A DNA stretch of 32,000 nucleotides from Rickettsiales bacterium (lineage in GTDB: Bacteria; Pseudomonadota; Alphaproteobacteria; Rs-D84). This document shows positions 8,775 through 32,000 of the stretch, piece by piece; position 1 is the first letter of the stretch; the number at the start of each line of letters is the position of its first letter. The notes beneath the pieces were generated by a model, which had not been told where the DNA came from, searched no databases, and was given only the letters and a program-made list of their open reading frames with translations. The position numbers were made by a program, and so were the translations under genes. The stretch covers positions 8,333 to 40,332 of the forward strand of contig JAISKV010000002.1 in NCBI GenBank assembly GCA_031260805.1. The letters are read 5' to 3'.

Positions 8775-8958
8775 TTTCTCTCTCCTTTTGTGTTTTTTCC
8801 AAATCCAACCGCATTGCGATAGGATAAAAAGCATATAAGAATATTTACTAGAATAAATACATAAATACAACCATGACTAGAATTATGAACACAAAAATAA
8901 GCCCTCGCGGCGATGAGCGGGGCCAGTCCACCTTCCCTTTTTGAGGTGGCCACTGTTT

Positions 8959-26128: not shown

Positions 26129-26143
26129 TTGTTTTTGGGATGC

Positions 26144-26171
26144 AAAATGCGCCGCTTGCGGCGCATTTTTT
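26144..26171 (+). terminator. Rho-independent terminator after rpsI
   Basis: AAAATGCGCCGC..GCGGCGCATTTTTT. Confidence 0.8.
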
Positions 26172-26220
26172 GTTATCCGTTATTCGTACTCGGTACTCGT
26201 TATTCATAGTCATTCACTCT
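26172..26220. repeat. Single-arm heptamer array, GTTATYC / GTACTCG units
   Basis: Reads gttatcc gttattc gtactcg gtactcg ttattca. Its first 27 nt are the near reverse complement of 10457-10483. Confidence 0.8.
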
Positions 26221-26379
26221 CCGTCGTCACCCCGGGCCCTGACCCGGGGTCCATGGCTCAATGGATTCCGGGTTTCGCTTCGCTCCCCCGGAATGACGAT
26301 AGAGTTATGTTCTTTTATCCACTACCCCAAACTCCTTATAAATAATTGCTATTCTTATACAAAGTGCTACGATTTTACT

Positions 26380-27537
26380 ATGACATTGCAGAACATATAT
26401 GACGATATTCATGACGAAGCACAAGATCGGCTGGACTATCATGATTATAACAATGGGTTTTATTATGACAATCCCGTAAAAAATGAAAAACTGGTTCACG
26501 GGATTTCTTTTCCAAAAAACAACATAAACACGCTGCCAGAACTGTTTACAGAATGGTTCCTTCTTGATTCTTCATCGGCCAAGACTGTGGATGGCTTTCT
26601 GGCCGCCGAACAACTGGACAGCATACTGTCTGTTGACGATTTTTATGCATTGCTTGGCGGCAATGCGGTCATTGACGATTTGATTTGCCAGTTTGTGTCT
26701 CAAATTCTTCCATTTACAACGGCGCAACTGCATTATATGCGCGCCAAGGTTCTTTATCGCGCTCCGCATGCGATGGAAATACGCGGCAACCCGGATATAA
26801 TACTGCCGCGCATCAAGGGCGCGGTCAAAGAACGCCGGCAATTGAAGCAAGAACGCCGCGCGCAATACATCCAAAAATACAACGACACGCCGCATGCCCG
26901 CGAGAATCGCAAAATATACTATATTGAAAACCGTCAGAAAATCCTGGCCCGCGTAAAAAAATACAGAACGCAAAATCGCGAAACCGTAATCCTGGCGCAA
27001 AAAAACTGGTATGAACGCAACAAAAATAAGATATCCAAGGCTGGCAAAGATTTCCGCCGCGATCATCCGGATCTGGTTCGCGAGCGGCGCAAGAAAATGC
27101 CTTCGGCCGCACCTGAAATAGTGGCGAAATATAATAAAGACTATCGCGCGCGGAACAAAACAAAACTGTCGCTGAAAAAAAAAGCAAAATACCTGGCAAA
27201 CCGCGACGATATTCGTGCGGCGATGAAAGAAAAGCGCATCTTGGACAAGACACAAAATCCTGAAAAGTTAGCGATGCAATCTGACCGGGAAAAACAGTGG
27301 CGCGCCGTGCATCGCGCTGAACAACAAACATACCATCAATTATATAACATAGAGAACAGTGCCGCGCGCGCCGACACAAAAAAGAAATGCTATCAGGCGA
27401 ACAAAGCCGCGTATAACGCGAATAATTCGCTGAATTATCTGCTGCGCACGCTGGAACCGCTGGCCGCTGCCATAAATTCCGGGGGGGGGGCGCGCCATGG
27501 TTGCGGATCGCGTGCGCGCGCTGGCGCAGAAACTTGA
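26380..27537 (+). CDS. Lys/Arg-rich protein with repeated K-x-Y-x3-N-[KR]-x-K-[IL] modules; function unknown
   Basis: The start is taken at MTLQNIYDD, because the upstream part of the track ORF translates repeat DNA. There are at least 6 modules, including RKIYYIENRQKIL, KKYRTQNRETVIL and QKNWYERNKNKIS. The ORF ends 47 nt after a G10 tract. Confidence 0.6.
   Translation: MTLQNIYDDIHDEAQDRLDYHDYNNGFYYDNPVKNEKLVHGISFPKNNINTLPELFTEWFLLDSSSAKTVDGFLAAEQLDSILSVDDFYALLGGNAVIDDLICQFVSQILPFTTAQLHYMRAKVLYRAPHAMEIRGNPDIILPRIKGAVKERRQLKQERRAQYIQKYNDTPHARENRKIYYIENRQKILARVKKYRTQNRETVILAQKNWYERNKNKISKAGKDFRRDHPDLVRERRKKMPSAAPEIVAKYNKDYRARNKTKLSLKKKAKYLANRDDIRAAMKEKRILDKTQNPEKLAMQSDREKQWRAVHRAEQQTYHQLYNIENSAARADTKKKCYQANKAAYNANNSLNYLLRTLEPLAAAINSGGGARHGCGSRARAGAET
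27481..27490. repeat. G10 homopolymer at a frame junction
   Basis: Ten consecutive G. The upstream ORF frame stops at 27537, while the +1 frame stays open to 27652. Confidence 0.95.
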
Positions 27538-27661: not shown

Positions 27662-28504
27662 TTACCAGCGGCGGTGCTGCCACAGCCATTGCGAAGGATC
27701 GCGGCGGATTATGCGCTCAATAACATCATTGATATACTGCATATTCCGCTTGTCCGTGTCCGCGGGCATTATCAATTCTTCTGCGACCAGTTCATGCCGG
27801 ATCCCTCCGATTCTCCGGTCGTACATCATCAGTATCGGGCATCCGAATTTATCCGCCAACTTTAACGCGCCGATCGGGGTTTTGGCCGGCCGGCCGAAAA
27901 AGTTCGCGATGACCCCGTTGTATTTAAGGTCCGCGGCGACCGCCATTTTCTCGTTATTCAGGAAAGCGCCCATCATTGCCCGCGAATCAGACGCCGCGAT
28001 AAAATGGCTGTTTCGCGCCGCCGTTCCGAATATGCGGCGCAGCAATTTGTCCGACAGCGGATTGTGCGGCTGTTTGTAAACAATATTAAACCTGGCGTTA
28101 TTGCAGAAAGGCAGCGTGTACAGCCCCATCAGGCCATAATGCATGTGGCACACCAGCAGCCTGTCAAACGAATTTGCGCGGTCAAATAATTCCTGATTTT
28201 TTATCAACACCAGTTTCCCGATGTTGCGCGCGTACTTTTTCAGATGCAGGCTCTCTATCTCGGCCCGGCCCCAGTTGTTCCACAGCCGTTTATAGAATTC
28301 AGGAGTATCGCATTCCGGGATCGCCGCGCGGATATTATCTGCGGTTATTTTCTGCCGCTTTTTCAAGACCAGTCGCCCCAGTTCGCCCAGTTTCCCGCCA
28401 ATTGCAGACGCCACGCGCAGCGGCATCATGCCGAACAGCCCCATATACAGTTGGATTCCCAGCCATTCCAGCGGGTATTGAATATTTTTTTTTATTTTTG
28501 CCAT
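27662..28504 (-). CDS. Lipid A biosynthesis (Kdo2-lipid IVA) acyltransferase, LpxL/HtrB family
   Basis: An N-terminal membrane helix with YPLEWLGIQLY, a central CHMHYGLMG (HX4-type acyltransferase box) and a C-terminal PSQWLWQHRRW match this family. Confidence 0.75.
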   Translation of the reverse strand: MAKIKKNIQYPLEWLGIQLYMGLFGMMPLRVASAIGGKLGELGRLVLKKRQKITADNIRAAIPECDTPEFYKRLWNNWGRAEIESLHLKKYARNIGKLVLIKNQELFDRANSFDRLLVCHMHYGLMGLYTLPFCNNARFNIVYKQPHNPLSDKLLRRIFGTAARNSHFIAASDSRAMMGAFLNNEKMAVAADLKYNGVIANFFGRPAKTPIGALKLADKFGCPILMMYDRRIGGIRHELVAEELIMPADTDKRNMQYINDVIERIIRRDPSQWLWQHRRW

Positions 28505-30306
28505 TTGTGCCAGATCCGGTTTGTGTTTGTGTAATGTATAGCACCATTATCGTAAATTGTAAAGCCCCCGGATAAAATCCGGGCCGTGCATCCGGGATAA
28601 TTAATGCGCAGGTATGATACTATGAAATCCCGGTTCGCGCACCAATCGGCCAGGTTTTCGGCCAGCGGCATGAATTTCTGGGTGTAAACCAGATTTAATT
28701 CAGGCACCGCGCAGACGCCGCTTGAACACTTTAATTTTCCGTTTGCGGAAGACGGATTCTGAAAATTCGCCATCTTCCACGAATCAAACGCAAAGTAATG
28801 CCCGCTGGACTTTGTCATGTTGAATTGCAGATTTCCGTCATTTGCGCGGTATGCGATTAATTCATTGTCAATCGTTGAATAAAAAACAGGCCGCGGCGCG
28901 ACAAACGGCCCAACCAGCCCAACCCCCAGCCCAGCGCAAGATACAATGATTTTCACCTTTTTATTTTTAATCGCGACCAGCCCCAACAAAGCGATAATCA
29001 TAACGCAGAAACAAACCCGCGGCAGCAGCGGAAACTGGATAACCGCATGCGGCCACGCGGAAATGCCTTGCGCCAGACCCAGCAGCCAGTCATAAACCGC
29101 TGACGCCCACGCCGTCTGGCCCAGCATTATCAGCGGCATTATAGCAAATGAAAATACTGGCAGAAAAATCAGATTCCCAATCAACGAATAAATCGGAAAA
29201 ACATGAAAGTGCCAGATGATGAACGGCGCGGTGAACAGCGTGCAAATCAAACTGGTCTGGATTAAAATTTTTATCCAATGCCATGCCTTGTGCAGCACGG
29301 TTCTTTTCCGGTACTCAGATTTCCCGAAAAACCAAAGCATGCCGAAAATCGCCGCAAAGGATAGTTGGAATCCAGGCTCTACCACATAATGCGGATTGAC
29401 CAGCAGCAGCGCGCAGAATACCATGACTGCGCCGCGCATGTTCAGCAGGCTGCGCCCCAGGATAAACGCGGCGAACACCAATGCGGTCATCAGGAACGCC
29501 CGCTGCGTCGCGACATCGCCGCCGGACAGCACTAGATAAAACGCCAATCCGGCCAGGGCCAGAATCATTGCCGGATAACGCGCCGGCATCCTGCGCGTCA
29601 TGCGCGAAATGCTGCGGAACACGAAATACAGCACCGCGAACAGCCAGCCGCCGACCAGCGTCATATGAAATCCGCTGATTGAAAACACATGCGAAACGCC
29701 GACAGCCTTCCATGCCGCATTGTCAGATTCCGGCAGCGCGTTTTTATATCCCAAAACCAAGGTGTCAAACAATGGCGATTGAAACCGGTTATGCAAATAC
29801 TCGCGCAGGTTGATTTTTGCATTATTATTTGCGCCAGTTATTTCAGTTATAAATCCGGTGCCGGAAATTCCATGAAAGTACGCCCATTCGCTGAAATCAT
29901 ACCCGCCGGATAAATCGGGCAGATTTGGCGGAAACACCGTGCCGCGCGCGACAATTTCCGCGCCGATTGGCGGCGCGGATACTTCGCGGCCCAGCGTCAG
30001 GCGGAAATCATTTATGAAAATTCGCACCTTGTCCGCGGCGTAATCAATATTCTTCACAACGCCGGTTATTTCCGTATCGCGCATGACGCCGCGAATCCGG
30101 GGCATTCCGAAATTCTGAGACCATCCGCAGGCATAGCAGAATGAAAAGACAAAAATTAAAAGACCGGATATGAACTTTGCCTTGCGCCATGCAGTCGCAT
30201 TGAACAAAGCCAGCGCCGCGATTATGAAGGGATACGCCAAATGCGGCTCTACCGGCAGTATGAAATAAGCGGCGATTCCAATAGAAAAAGCGATTACAGC
30301 CAGCAT
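28492..30306 (-). CDS. comEC: ComEC/Rec2-family DNA internalisation channel, with no recognisable C-terminal metallo-beta-lactamase domain
   Basis: A DUF4131-like N-terminus (ITGVVKNIDY...GGYDFSEWAYFHGISGTGFI) is followed by the competence-domain motif VGVSHVFSISGFHMTLVGG. There is no HxHxDH motif. Confidence 0.85.
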   Translation of the reverse strand: MLAVIAFSIGIAAYFILPVEPHLAYPFIIAALALFNATAWRKAKFISGLLIFVFSFCYACGWSQNFGMPRIRGVMRDTEITGVVKNIDYAADKVRIFINDFRLTLGREVSAPPIGAEIVARGTVFPPNLPDLSGGYDFSEWAYFHGISGTGFITEITGANNNAKINLREYLHNRFQSPLFDTLVLGYKNALPESDNAAWKAVGVSHVFSISGFHMTLVGGWLFAVLYFVFRSISRMTRRMPARYPAMILALAGLAFYLVLSGGDVATQRAFLMTALVFAAFILGRSLLNMRGAVMVFCALLLVNPHYVVEPGFQLSFAAIFGMLWFFGKSEYRKRTVLHKAWHWIKILIQTSLICTLFTAPFIIWHFHVFPIYSLIGNLIFLPVFSFAIMPLIMLGQTAWASAVYDWLLGLAQGISAWPHAVIQFPLLPRVCFCVMIIALLGLVAIKNKKVKIIVSCAGLGVGLVGPFVAPRPVFYSTIDNELIAYRANDGNLQFNMTKSSGHYFAFDSWKMANFQNPSSANGKLKCSSGVCAVPELNLVYTQKFMPLAENLADWCANRDFIVSYLRINYPGCTARILSGGFTIYDNGAIHYTNTNRIWHKWQK

Positions 30307-30446
30307 GCAAGCATTCTAGTACAATAAATATTCTAAAAGAAACTAAAATTAATCCGCCTGCATTATCCCGTTAATTTCTTTCAACACGCTGTCTGACAAA
30401 ACAAGAATTAATACCACTAATCAGAGCAGTTGGAATTTCCGTTTTC

Positions 30447-30476
30447 AATGTATAGCATACTAGTATGCTATACATT
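30447..30476. promoter_or_regulatory. Perfect 30-bp palindrome, candidate operator copy 1
   Basis: Sequence aatgtatagcatact|agtatgctatacatt. It lies 21 nt downstream of the TrpR-like stop and 141 nt upstream of the comEC ATG. Confidence 0.6.
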
Positions 30477-30496
30477 ATCAGGCTATCCGATTTTAT

Positions 30497-30802
30497 TCAA
30501 TTCTGCTTTAGTTTCTTTATGTTTTTATTGAAATCCGCATGTGGATGCAAGCGCTGGATAACAGTCTTGTATCCATTATTCTTTTCTTCATATATTTTAT
30601 GCGAAACCCGCGTTATAGTCGCGCGGCCACAGTTAAAACGGGCGGCGATGCGCGGCTGGGATTCAGGCGTCAGCACCAGAGATTGCGCGATATTCCATCG
30701 TGCAGAAATCTCGCGAATTTCTGTTGGAGTTAAAATATCCCGCAAAAAATTGAAAAATTCCTTTTCGGACTTTATCGCCGAAAAAGCATGATATAGATTC
30801 AT
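30497..30802 (-). CDS. TrpR/YerC-family helix-turn-helix regulator
   Basis: FLRDILTPTEIREISARWNIAQSLV...SQPRIAARFNCGRATITRVS matches the Trp-repressor family signature. Confidence 0.75.
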   Translation of the reverse strand: MNLYHAFSAIKSEKEFFNFLRDILTPTEIREISARWNIAQSLVLTPESQPRIAARFNCGRATITRVSHKIYEEKNNGYKTVIQRLHPHADFNKNIKKLKQN

Positions 30803-30833
30803 AGCCCGCCCCCTGTGTTTAACAATGTTTCAT

Positions 30834-30861
30834 ATGTATAGCATACTAGTATGCTATACAT
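30834..30861. promoter_or_regulatory. Perfect 28-bp palindrome, candidate operator copy 2
   Basis: atgtatagcatactagtatgctatacat is identical to 30448-30475. It lies 32-59 nt upstream of the TrpR-like ATG. Confidence 0.65.
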
Positions 30862-30871
30862 TATTAGTCAA
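30843..30871 (-). promoter_or_regulatory. Candidate promoter of the TrpR-like gene
   Basis: The minus strand reads TTGACT, a 17-nt spacer, then TAGTAT. The -10 element and the spacer lie inside the palindrome. Confidence 0.5.
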
Positions 30872-30986: not shown

Positions 30987-32000
30987 TTATGGCGCACTGT
31001 ATGCATCAATGACCGCCATCCAAGAAAAACTCGTCCCGTCATAATGCAATACGCAATTACTGCACGCCCCGCTTGGCTTTGGAATATAAGCCCCCATCGC
31101 GCTATTAATCGCGCCATCCATAGTTTGCTTGTTTACAGCATCATGATCATTTATCGGATCTGCGACCGCCGTTATCGCGCGATATAATTCAAAATTTTCA
31201 TCACCAACAGCCACAGTGTTCGCCCGTATTGTCGCACTGCTGGCCCCCAAAGCGATAGAATTAGGATAAAATGCGTATGACTCGTTGCCAATAGCAATTG
31301 ATTTTGCAGAATTTTGCATTACGCCCGCGTTCGCACCCAGCGCCACCGAATAGACAGAACTCGCACTTGATCCGGAACCTATCGCGATACCATATGATGA
31401 ATTATTGACAACGGCATATTCACCAATCGCAACGCCTTCGGTTCCATTAGCCTGAGAATATCCGCCAACCGCGACACCACCACCCTTATCTACCCTGGCA
31501 TACGAACCGACGGCAACCCCAAAATCCCCACCACTGACAATGGAACCAGAGCCAATTGCAGTACCGGCTACAAAAAAATCCCCATTAACTGTGCCGCCTA
31601 TTTGGATATCAGCAGATGTTTCTGGTCCATTACCCATAAAATCTTGAACTCTGTAAATCAATTTAGTTGCAGCCAATTGAGTCATTGCACCGTCCGTATT
31701 GGCACCAATAGAATTATATAATTGACTGGTTGTCAGCAAATTACTCGGCTTGTCTGTCAAATCATTGTAAGAGCCGCTTGTCGCGACAGCCGCCAAAGAT
31801 TCTGTTATTGCCGCGACAGCGCCATCAACATACGATCTGGCCGCCAGATCGCCAACATCGGCTGATAATGAATTTATTTGCACAAAGCCAATCAAGATAT
31901 ATATAAAATATTGACAAAACTTAACTTTGTCGTGCGGGAGGGGGGGGGTAAAAATTCGGTTTCTACACTCATAGAAACATTTTATAAAAATACCCGGCAT
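30987..32000 (-). CDS. Secreted fibre/adhesin with a tail-fibre-like N-terminal motif and YadA-head (Hep_Hag-like) repeats; the 5' end is at or beyond the window edge
   Basis: LAARSYVDGAV...SGSYNDLTDKP is followed by repeats of the form GVAVGSYA / GVAIGEYA / YGIAIGSG / YSVALGAN / KSIAIGNE / NSIALGAS / NTVAVGD. A neck-like YRAITAVADPINDHDAVNKQTMD follows. A C9 tract covers codons 18-21. Confidence 0.7.
   Translation of the reverse strand: MPGIFIKCFYECRNRIFTPPLPHDKVKFCQYFIYILIGFVQINSLSADVGDLAARSYVDGAVAAITESLAAVATSGSYNDLTDKPSNLLTTSQLYNSIGANTDGAMTQLAATKLIYRVQDFMGNGPETSADIQIGGTVNGDFFVAGTAIGSGSIVSGGDFGVAVGSYARVDKGGGVAVGGYSQANGTEGVAIGEYAVVNNSSYGIAIGSGSSASSVYSVALGANAGVMQNSAKSIAIGNESYAFYPNSIALGASSATIRANTVAVGDENFELYRAITAVADPINDHDAVNKQTMDGAINSAMGAYIPKPSGACSNCVLHYDGTSFSWMAVIDAYSAP
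31940..31948. repeat. G9 (coding-strand C9) homopolymer in the 5' coding region of the YadA-head fibre gene
   Basis: Nine consecutive G lie between the only in-frame ATG and the signal-peptide-like segment. Confidence 0.95.

Follow-up and report, generated by a model that had tools for sequence, protein, structure and literature searches.

The Trp repressor (TrpR) of Escherichia coli recognizes operators whose half-sites lie 8 bp apart and on which its dimers bind in tandem (PDB 1TRO; tandem complex 1TRR). The YerC family corresponds to HisR, the histidine repressor within the TrpR family (Ashniev et al. 2022, PMC9413887); operators of TrpR and HisR are palindromes that overlap promoters, with GNACT half-sites spaced by 8 bp, and autoregulation is common (PMC9413887). 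Here we describe a member of this family that is encoded between two copies of a 28-bp palindrome, next to the DNA-uptake gene comEC, in a 32,000-nt stretch of DNA (hereafter the window) from a Rickettsiales bacterium (Alphaproteobacteria; Rs-D84). The window corresponds to C15:8333-40332 of the source genome (G000), a 729-kb assembly of 15 contigs with 50.8% GC, and the related metagenome-assembled genomes that were retrieved are those of termite-gut Alphaproteobacteria/Rickettsiales. To our knowledge, nothing is known about gene regulation in these uncultured gut Alphaproteobacteria. Judging from the sequence, we consider it likely that the repressor of the TrpR/YerC family encoded between the window copies uses the palindrome as its operator, and that this repressor would be autorepressed and would also gate the comEC-lpxL gene pair.

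The 28-mer ATGTATAGCATACTAGTATGCTATACAT occurs twice in the window, at 30448-30475 (copy 1, which extends to a perfect 30-mer palindrome at 30447..30476) and at 30834..30861 (copy 2), neither copy being assigned to a strand. An earlier note on this DNA had reported this pair, and both prove to be exact matches where none is expected in shuffled sequence. Each copy is made of three boxes, ATAG, CTAG and CTAT, whose centres lie exactly 8 bp apart, with the symmetry centre falling on the middle box. Outside the palindrome, the two window copies agree at 12/40 and 13/40 flanking positions, which is near random, against 28/28 within it, a contrast that speaks for constraint on the element or for precise copying in the recent past. 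The tetranucleotide CTAG is itself 21-fold rarer than expected in the source genome (132 sites against ~2846 expected in 729 kb; 11 of the 132 fall inside the window), and the pattern [AC]TAG-N4-CTAG-N4-CTA[GT] is found across the whole genome at six palindromes only.

The gene bracketed by the two copies (30497..30802, minus strand) encodes a helix-turn-helix protein of 101 aa that is placed in the TrpR/YerC family by its match to PF01371 (56.8 bits against a cut-off of 27, spanning residues 4-85); profile matches likewise uphold the naming of comEC (PF03772) and of the lpxL-family gene (PF03279) in the earlier note. Residues 19-70 align without gaps to residues 38-89 of E. coli TrpR, and the recognition helix, ATITR, is identical to TrpR residues A80-R84. 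The likeness to E. coli TrpR, whose operators include those of trpEDCBA, aroH and trpR, extends to operators built of CTAG boxes 8 bp apart over a -10 element, to an array of boxes that suits tandem dimers, and to the autoregulation predicted for the regulator's own gene. Among the TrpR-pocket positions, R54, R84, T44 and T81 are kept, whereas G85 is replaced by Val. At the position of R69 the regulator has Pro. The regulator further departs from TrpR in scoring below the TrpR equivalog cut-off (TIGR01321; 30.9 against 67.25 bits), in having no trp or aro genes beside any of the six palindrome sites, which are near-identical, and in an operator of three boxes (28 bp) that is symmetric about a box, where the TrpR operator (two boxes, 20 bp) is symmetric about the gap between its boxes.

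By sequence, the best solved-structure relatives of the regulator are 3FRW, 3G1C and 3KOR, all of the HisR (YerC/YecD) type, and homologues ~50% identical to it lie beside his-type genes. In contrast to HisR, the protein falls below the TIGR02531 (YerC/YecD) cut-off (35.3 against 42.2 bits), lacks the hallmark residues (Tyr at TrpR R69 and Ser at T83, where it has Pro and Thr), belongs to a different clade, and comes from a genome in whose assembly no hisG was found. A profile search returned >2400 TrpR-family members and an exact-protein look-up returned no record; among the related genomes homologues are patchy, 9/61 carrying one.

The only sigma-70-like match facing the regulator gene, TTGACT-17-TAGTAT (30843..30871, minus strand; -35 at 30871..30866, -10 at 30848..30843, spacer 17), has both its spacer and its -10 inside copy 2, as had been claimed, and the first base of the -10 is the second of the central CTAG box. 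This box supplies the -10 element itself, such that a bound repressor would exclude RNA polymerase and thereby repress its own gene. Two dimers in tandem probably cover the whole 28 bp, which would explain why all 28 bp are kept.

The same geometry recurs at the loci of homologues. (Individual loci carry L-numbers, and individual homologues are labelled P0002, P0004, P0007, P0027 and Nt197; G017 is the sister genome, with regulator G017a, and G006 a close relative with an 86%-complete assembly.) A scripted scan found TTGA(C/T)N-17-TAnnnT in 13/19 homologue loci, always with a 17-bp spacer, and in 12 of those 13 the -10 takes its first base from the second position of a (C/T)TA(G/A) box; in TrpR-family loci the repressor box itself is therefore the -10 element. 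Nearly all homologues examined have an upstream -35 of the form TTGAC(T/A) followed, within a few bases, by a palindrome or box array of their own: a perfect palindrome of 50 bp, containing four CTAG boxes at 8-bp intervals, at the regulator on contig C18 of G017, TTCTAGTATACTAGAA in G026 and Nt197, GTTCTAGCATGCTATAAC in G041 and ACACTAGCGCGCTAGTGT in G057, with TTAG/CTAA boxes instead in further homologues. Among these is the closest homologue, P0002 (64% identical; encoded between pyrG and truA on a contig from the Joint Genome Institute, JGI), which is preceded by TTGACT-tta-ACATACTAGCATACTAGTATGCTAGTATGT, with the ATG inside the palindrome, and whose central 18 bp (TAGCATACTAGTATGCTA) are identical to the centre of the palindrome in the source genome.

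The homologue palindromes, the shared -35/17/-10 geometry, the P0002 core and the ATITR identity together lead us to regard copy 2, with good confidence, as the predicted autoregulatory operator; the earlier proposal of a cognate TrpR-family operator in an autorepression layout gains support from the phased palindromes that homologues carry over the same promoter. The regulator-operator pair is of a familiar type and would lend itself to testing in vitro, the operator being very specific since CTAG is nearly banned from the source genome. What is unusual is comEC as a putative target; perfect sites are moreover multiplied in the genome. The system would represent the re-use of a TrpR/HisR-type amino-acid repressor fold for non-metabolic targets, with the repressor box serving at the same time as the -10 element throughout the family.

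Copy 1 lies 21 nt past the regulator stop codon and, as noted earlier, ends 141 nt ahead of the comEC ATG, in the 190-bp gap that precedes comEC-lpxL. The genes follow each other on the minus strand in the order YadA-head-repeat gene, regulator, comEC and LpxL-type gene. comEC (28492..30306, minus strand; PF03772, 1.2e-49) encodes a DNA-uptake channel of 604 aa, and the gene for the LpxL-type lipid A acyltransferase (27662..28504, minus strand; PF03279, 3.2e-20) is probably co-transcribed with it, since the two overlap by 13 nt at the comEC end. A terminator scan found no terminator-like site between 30200 and 31000. The sequence GTACTAGAAT (30313..30322, minus strand) holds TAGAAT, 6 nt before the comEC ATG, and is a candidate -10 of a weak proximal promoter of leaderless type, not an operator; similarly short distances between -10 and ATG are seen in homologue loci (6-9 nt) and before comEC of the sister genome (TATAAT, 5 nt). 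The earlier note had listed GTACTAGAAT and the two copies of ACTAGAAT at 8847 and 8876 as CTAG-containing relatives of the palindrome. All three exist, but their kinship with the operator was not supported, as they are single boxes, unphased (the ACTAGAAT copies being 29 bp apart) and outside the three-box pattern.

A repressor bound to copy 1 would most likely block read-through from the regulator promoter into comEC-lpxL, and may block a weak local promoter too, which would leave comEC with its weak proximal promoter only. We favor this role of copy 1 as a roadblock or second operator because of the poor -35 at copy 1 and of the likely comEC -10 six nt before the ATG. Most relatives have a single palindrome, located at the regulator promoter, and at three loci another operator is found between the regulator and the gene after it: in L030 the second copy, with an identical 18-bp core, lies in the promoter of a tRNA-His gene that is followed by hisS, in L036 it lies ahead of hisG, and in L033 ahead of a gene pair that includes an FGase-family enzyme. 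The recurrence of a second operator in three relatives argues that the palindrome pair of the window is a regulatory layout and not the two ends of a cassette.

The association with comEC extends to the sister genome. In relatives, pyrG and comEC are followed by truA and fmt in opposite orientation, and the regulator, if there is one, sits between comEC and truA (G017) or in the same place without comEC (P0002, P0027). The source genome is rearranged in this respect, the regulator being upstream of comEC, pyrG on C2, and truA and fmt on C9. comEC of G017 is split across two contigs; ~90 nt upstream of its ATG is GCACTATTGCACTAGTGTACTAGTGCAATAGTG, with boxes CTAT/CTAG/CTAG/ATAG at 8-bp phase, just past TTGACA-17-TGTAAT and upstream of the proximal TTGCAA-18-TATAAT. 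A phased CTAG array upstream of comEC is thus common to two genera. A duplicate promoter-operator module stands in G017 ahead of upstream genes of 256 aa and 321 aa, and this genome further has phased arrays before a collagen-repeat tail-fibre-like gene and before a MuF-like gene, as well as an array with the 18-bp core of the source genome before a T7-tail-fibre-like gene (weak Phage_T7_tail match) in a cluster for a phage-like particle (arrays at C79:5003, C79:13180 and C97:1228; L060, L061, L063). No homology was found between the genes beside the sites of the source genome and those beside the arrays of G017. The homologue of the phage-like particle cluster in the source genome (C6:3835-6414) is without the extra tail-fibre gene and without a palindrome.

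We note a bolder reading, to which we attach only a small chance, in which a clade of TrpR-family repressors would serve as a dedicated controller of ComEC in small-genome bacteria. It is suggested by the linkage of regulator and comEC together with the upstream phased CTAG array in two genera, and by the arrays that stand ahead of tail-fibre-like and MuF-like genes in the domesticated phage-like particle cluster of G017. If true, it would define a new competence or gene-transfer regulon under an amino-acid-repressor fold, with the multiplied perfect operators as extra control or titration sites. The less demanding reading that we prefer, an autorepressed regulator that also gates comEC-lpxL, already provides a concrete hypothesis in which DNA uptake is under repressor control.

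A search of the source genome for the 28-mer identified six copies, all intergenic, and none further even at <=6 mismatches. Besides window copies 1 and 2 (C15a and C15b, both perfect), these are C2a (C2:29148; one mismatch), with tRNA-Arg to the left and a probable frameshifted autotransporter-like gene to the right; C2b (C2:34119; perfect), between a small helix-turn-helix gene and a MarR-efflux operon; C9 (C9:47954; perfect), between virB8-virB9-virB10-like genes and a gene of 151 aa; and C12 (C12:32156; perfect), between a DAC-domain cyclase gene and dnaN. Each of these four lies between two plus-strand genes. The neighbors of the six sites are accordingly comEC, the regulator, dnaN/DAC, a virB10-like gene, the MarR operon, and tRNA-Arg with a surface-protein gene. 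The unit conserved across copies is the palindrome plus ~20 bp on one side, the side of the -35 of copy 2. C12 keeps TTGTCA-18-TAGTAT, aimed antisense into the end of the cyclase gene, and C2a, C2b and C9 share 90-139 bp as well as a 3-nt deletion that spoils the -35. Copies lie in the loops of, or beside, the heptamer-array hairpins and the repetitive extragenic palindromic (REP)-like repeats that fill the spacers of this genome.

We propose that these four copies are additional binding sites carried on duplicated promoter-operator modules in repeat-rich intergenic DNA, three of them with a crippled -35; they may serve as decoys or for titration, act as antisense promoters, or be neutral. Since they lie off the promoters of neighboring genes, the regulon is not simply comEC plus lpxL, as the earlier note had suggested; its link to comEC gains support, given that in G017 the regulator lies beside comEC and an array ~90 nt upstream of that gene. 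Three other explanations for the four copies were rejected: as operators of dnaN or the MarR operon they would be misplaced, since these genes have their promoters a further 83-105 bp away and, at C2b, behind a terminator; tblastn found none of the remnants to be expected if the copies were scars left by decayed regulator genes; and the small open reading frames (ORFs) downstream of the orphan copies are conserved neither in length nor in sequence. A search of all six loci against Rfam returned nothing but a tRNA.

Several findings weigh against an operator that controls both the regulator and comEC. Four of the six copies are away from the promoters of adjacent genes, their promoter-like side being antisense to the upstream gene, and the -35 is degenerate in C2a, C2b and C9. 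Independent operators are not usually identical at 28/28 positions, as five of these sites are, which suggests recent copying or gene conversion. At comEC itself, copy 1 is without a good -35 and lies ~125 nt upstream of the likely proximal -10, such that the case for control of this gene depends on the proposed roadblock or read-through mechanism; the comEC operator of G017 differs in spacer sequence from the operator at the regulator promoter. Lastly, G006, whose ComEC is the closest (52% identity), has the same 18-bp core TAGCATACTAGTATGCTA at two intergenic sites, and its 86%-complete assembly yielded no PF01371 gene. This genome also has a variant with two boxes, placed in a TTGTCA-16-TAGTAT promoter that lies 170 nt ahead of gyrA (sites at C4:70658, C13:19871 and C2:83673; L065, L067, L068). 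In G006, the regulator gene may be unassembled or recently lost, or the arrays may be read by another protein. Small helix-turn-helix genes are found upstream of one site in the source genome and one in G006, with no homology between them.

Some of these findings would also be expected if the palindrome and its ~20-bp flank were a small dispersed repeat, copied by the same process that fills spacers with heptamer hairpins and REP-like elements, its position reflecting an insertion preference and repressor binding being optional. Five perfect copies with sharply non-homologous flanks, the C2a, C2b and C9 subfamily with its shared deletion, the position of copies in or beside heptamer-array hairpin loops, and the identical multi-copy cores of G006 without a detectable regulator all fit this explanation. 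We nevertheless consider it unlikely. There are six copies only, with no decayed ones at <=6 mismatches; the source genome has no PF01797 match and hence no Y1 REP-associated tyrosine transposase (RAYT) such as would characterize a REP/RAYT system; and the element is made of phased boxes typical of the family, in the very promoter register that 13/19 homologue loci show. Moreover, the palindrome is absent at <=3 mismatches from 327 other genomes of the order, each homologue having its own matched palindrome, and its 22-bp core has no match in JGI metagenome contigs. Promoter regions that propagate within prokaryotic genomes ('mobile' promoters) have reportedly been described by Matus-Garcia et al. 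in 2012. The module studied here resembles these in that a promoter-sized unit (-35, operator/-10 and short flank, ~48-140 bp) is repeated at unrelated loci, but most of its copies face no gene, three have lost the -35, and it is the repressor site, not the promoter, that is perfectly conserved.

The earlier note had offered, as an alternative, that the two palindromes are the termini of a mini-cassette. In that case they would be recombination sites of 11-6-11 layout, comparable to the dif/pdif modules of the Xer system, that move the regulator gene. The 28 bp can indeed be read as 11-bp arms around ACTAGT, a length that fits dif/pdif, the regulator-plus-operator unit occurs in differing gene contexts across genomes, and a pair of copies on contig C2 flanks 5 kb of DNA beside tRNA-Arg. 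We regard such a cassette as very improbable: a perfect palindrome leaves no XerC/XerD asymmetry, every copy lies far from the three tyrosine recombinase genes and has no recombinase or transposase associated with it, and the ancestral position of the regulator in its clade, between comEC and truA, is syntenic rather than scattered. Relatives usually have one palindrome, at the regulator promoter, and the second operators of L030 (at tRNA-His), L033 and L036 are elements of the next gene's promoter. That the palindromes act as RNA hairpins (in termination, processing or stability) and not as DNA operators, as their 12-14-bp stem, the minimum free energy of the folded segments (-14.7 to -20.9 kcal/mol) and the position of copy 1 just past the regulator stop codon might suggest, is just as hard to sustain, there being no U-tract after them, an empty terminator scan, no Rfam matches, conservation of phased boxes without compensatory stem changes, and a copy 2 that would be only half transcribed if the transcript starts after TAGTAT.

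As to the ligand, the neighborhoods of homologues tie part of the protein family, it would appear, to histidine and not to tryptophan, while the regulator's own clade is not so tied. Homologues ~50% identical to the regulator adjoin tRNA-His, hisS, hisG, an FGase-family gene and an aromatic/histidine ammonia-lyase-family gene. The regulator of the source genome groups with G017a as its sister (support 99/81) in a maximum-likelihood tree, within a six-member clade; of the four his-adjacent rows, P0004, P0007 and G033 fall in another clade, and Nt197 is likewise outside. No palindrome was found near hisS of the source genome (C11:23382-24653), nor anywhere on contig C11. Only 35 tRNA genes are assembled in the source genome according to aragorn, tRNA-His being missing. 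TrpR-family proteins of ~111 aa form a clade beside his-type genes in termite-gut Alphaproteobacteria, with one member in Patescibacteria (L030 2498-4799; L006/L028; L036; L033; L074). With its operator in the tRNA-His promoter, L030 would add a tRNA gene to the HisR regulon.

A number of other features of these loci deserve mention. The YadA-head-repeat gene upstream of the regulator (30987..32000, minus strand; PF05658, 3.4e-09) is present in the window as its 3' part and runs on beyond the end; its product is adhesin- or tail-fibre-like. In G017, a truncated second copy of the 3' half of the regulator gene lies ~0.9 kb downstream of the intact gene (C18:4830-5930; L026), the two being split by an inserted gene of 182 aa flanked by GGACATAGCGATA inverted repeats; this locus is rearrangement-prone. 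In the source genome, a large hairpin with arms made of TAAGGTT/AACCTTA heptamer arrays (C12:32056-32265; L003 4056-4265) has the C12 palindrome in its loop, between the DAC-domain (cyclic di-AMP cyclase) gene and dnaN. The row of virB8, virB9/CagX and virB10/TrbI-like genes (C9:43071-47563; L039, L002) ends right before the C9 palindrome, with no virB11 or virD4 after it. On C2, two palindrome modules in direct orientation bracket 5 kb beside tRNA-Arg(acg) (C2:29148-34146; L001 4149-9147), with a CTGAACT heptamer array outside each module. The bracketed segment contains the probable frameshifted autotransporter-like gene (333 + 189 aa), an inositol monophosphatase-family gene, two orphans of 200 aa and the small helix-turn-helix gene, and could be an island or a module-mediated duplication. 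The REP-like repeat itself measures ~77-105 bp (GTCATTCCGG ... CCGGAATGAC, with an inner CCCGGG hairpin) and is present in >25 copies across the contigs of the source genome, one of which sits in a long, spurious-looking window ORF (26140-27537) without a Pfam match.

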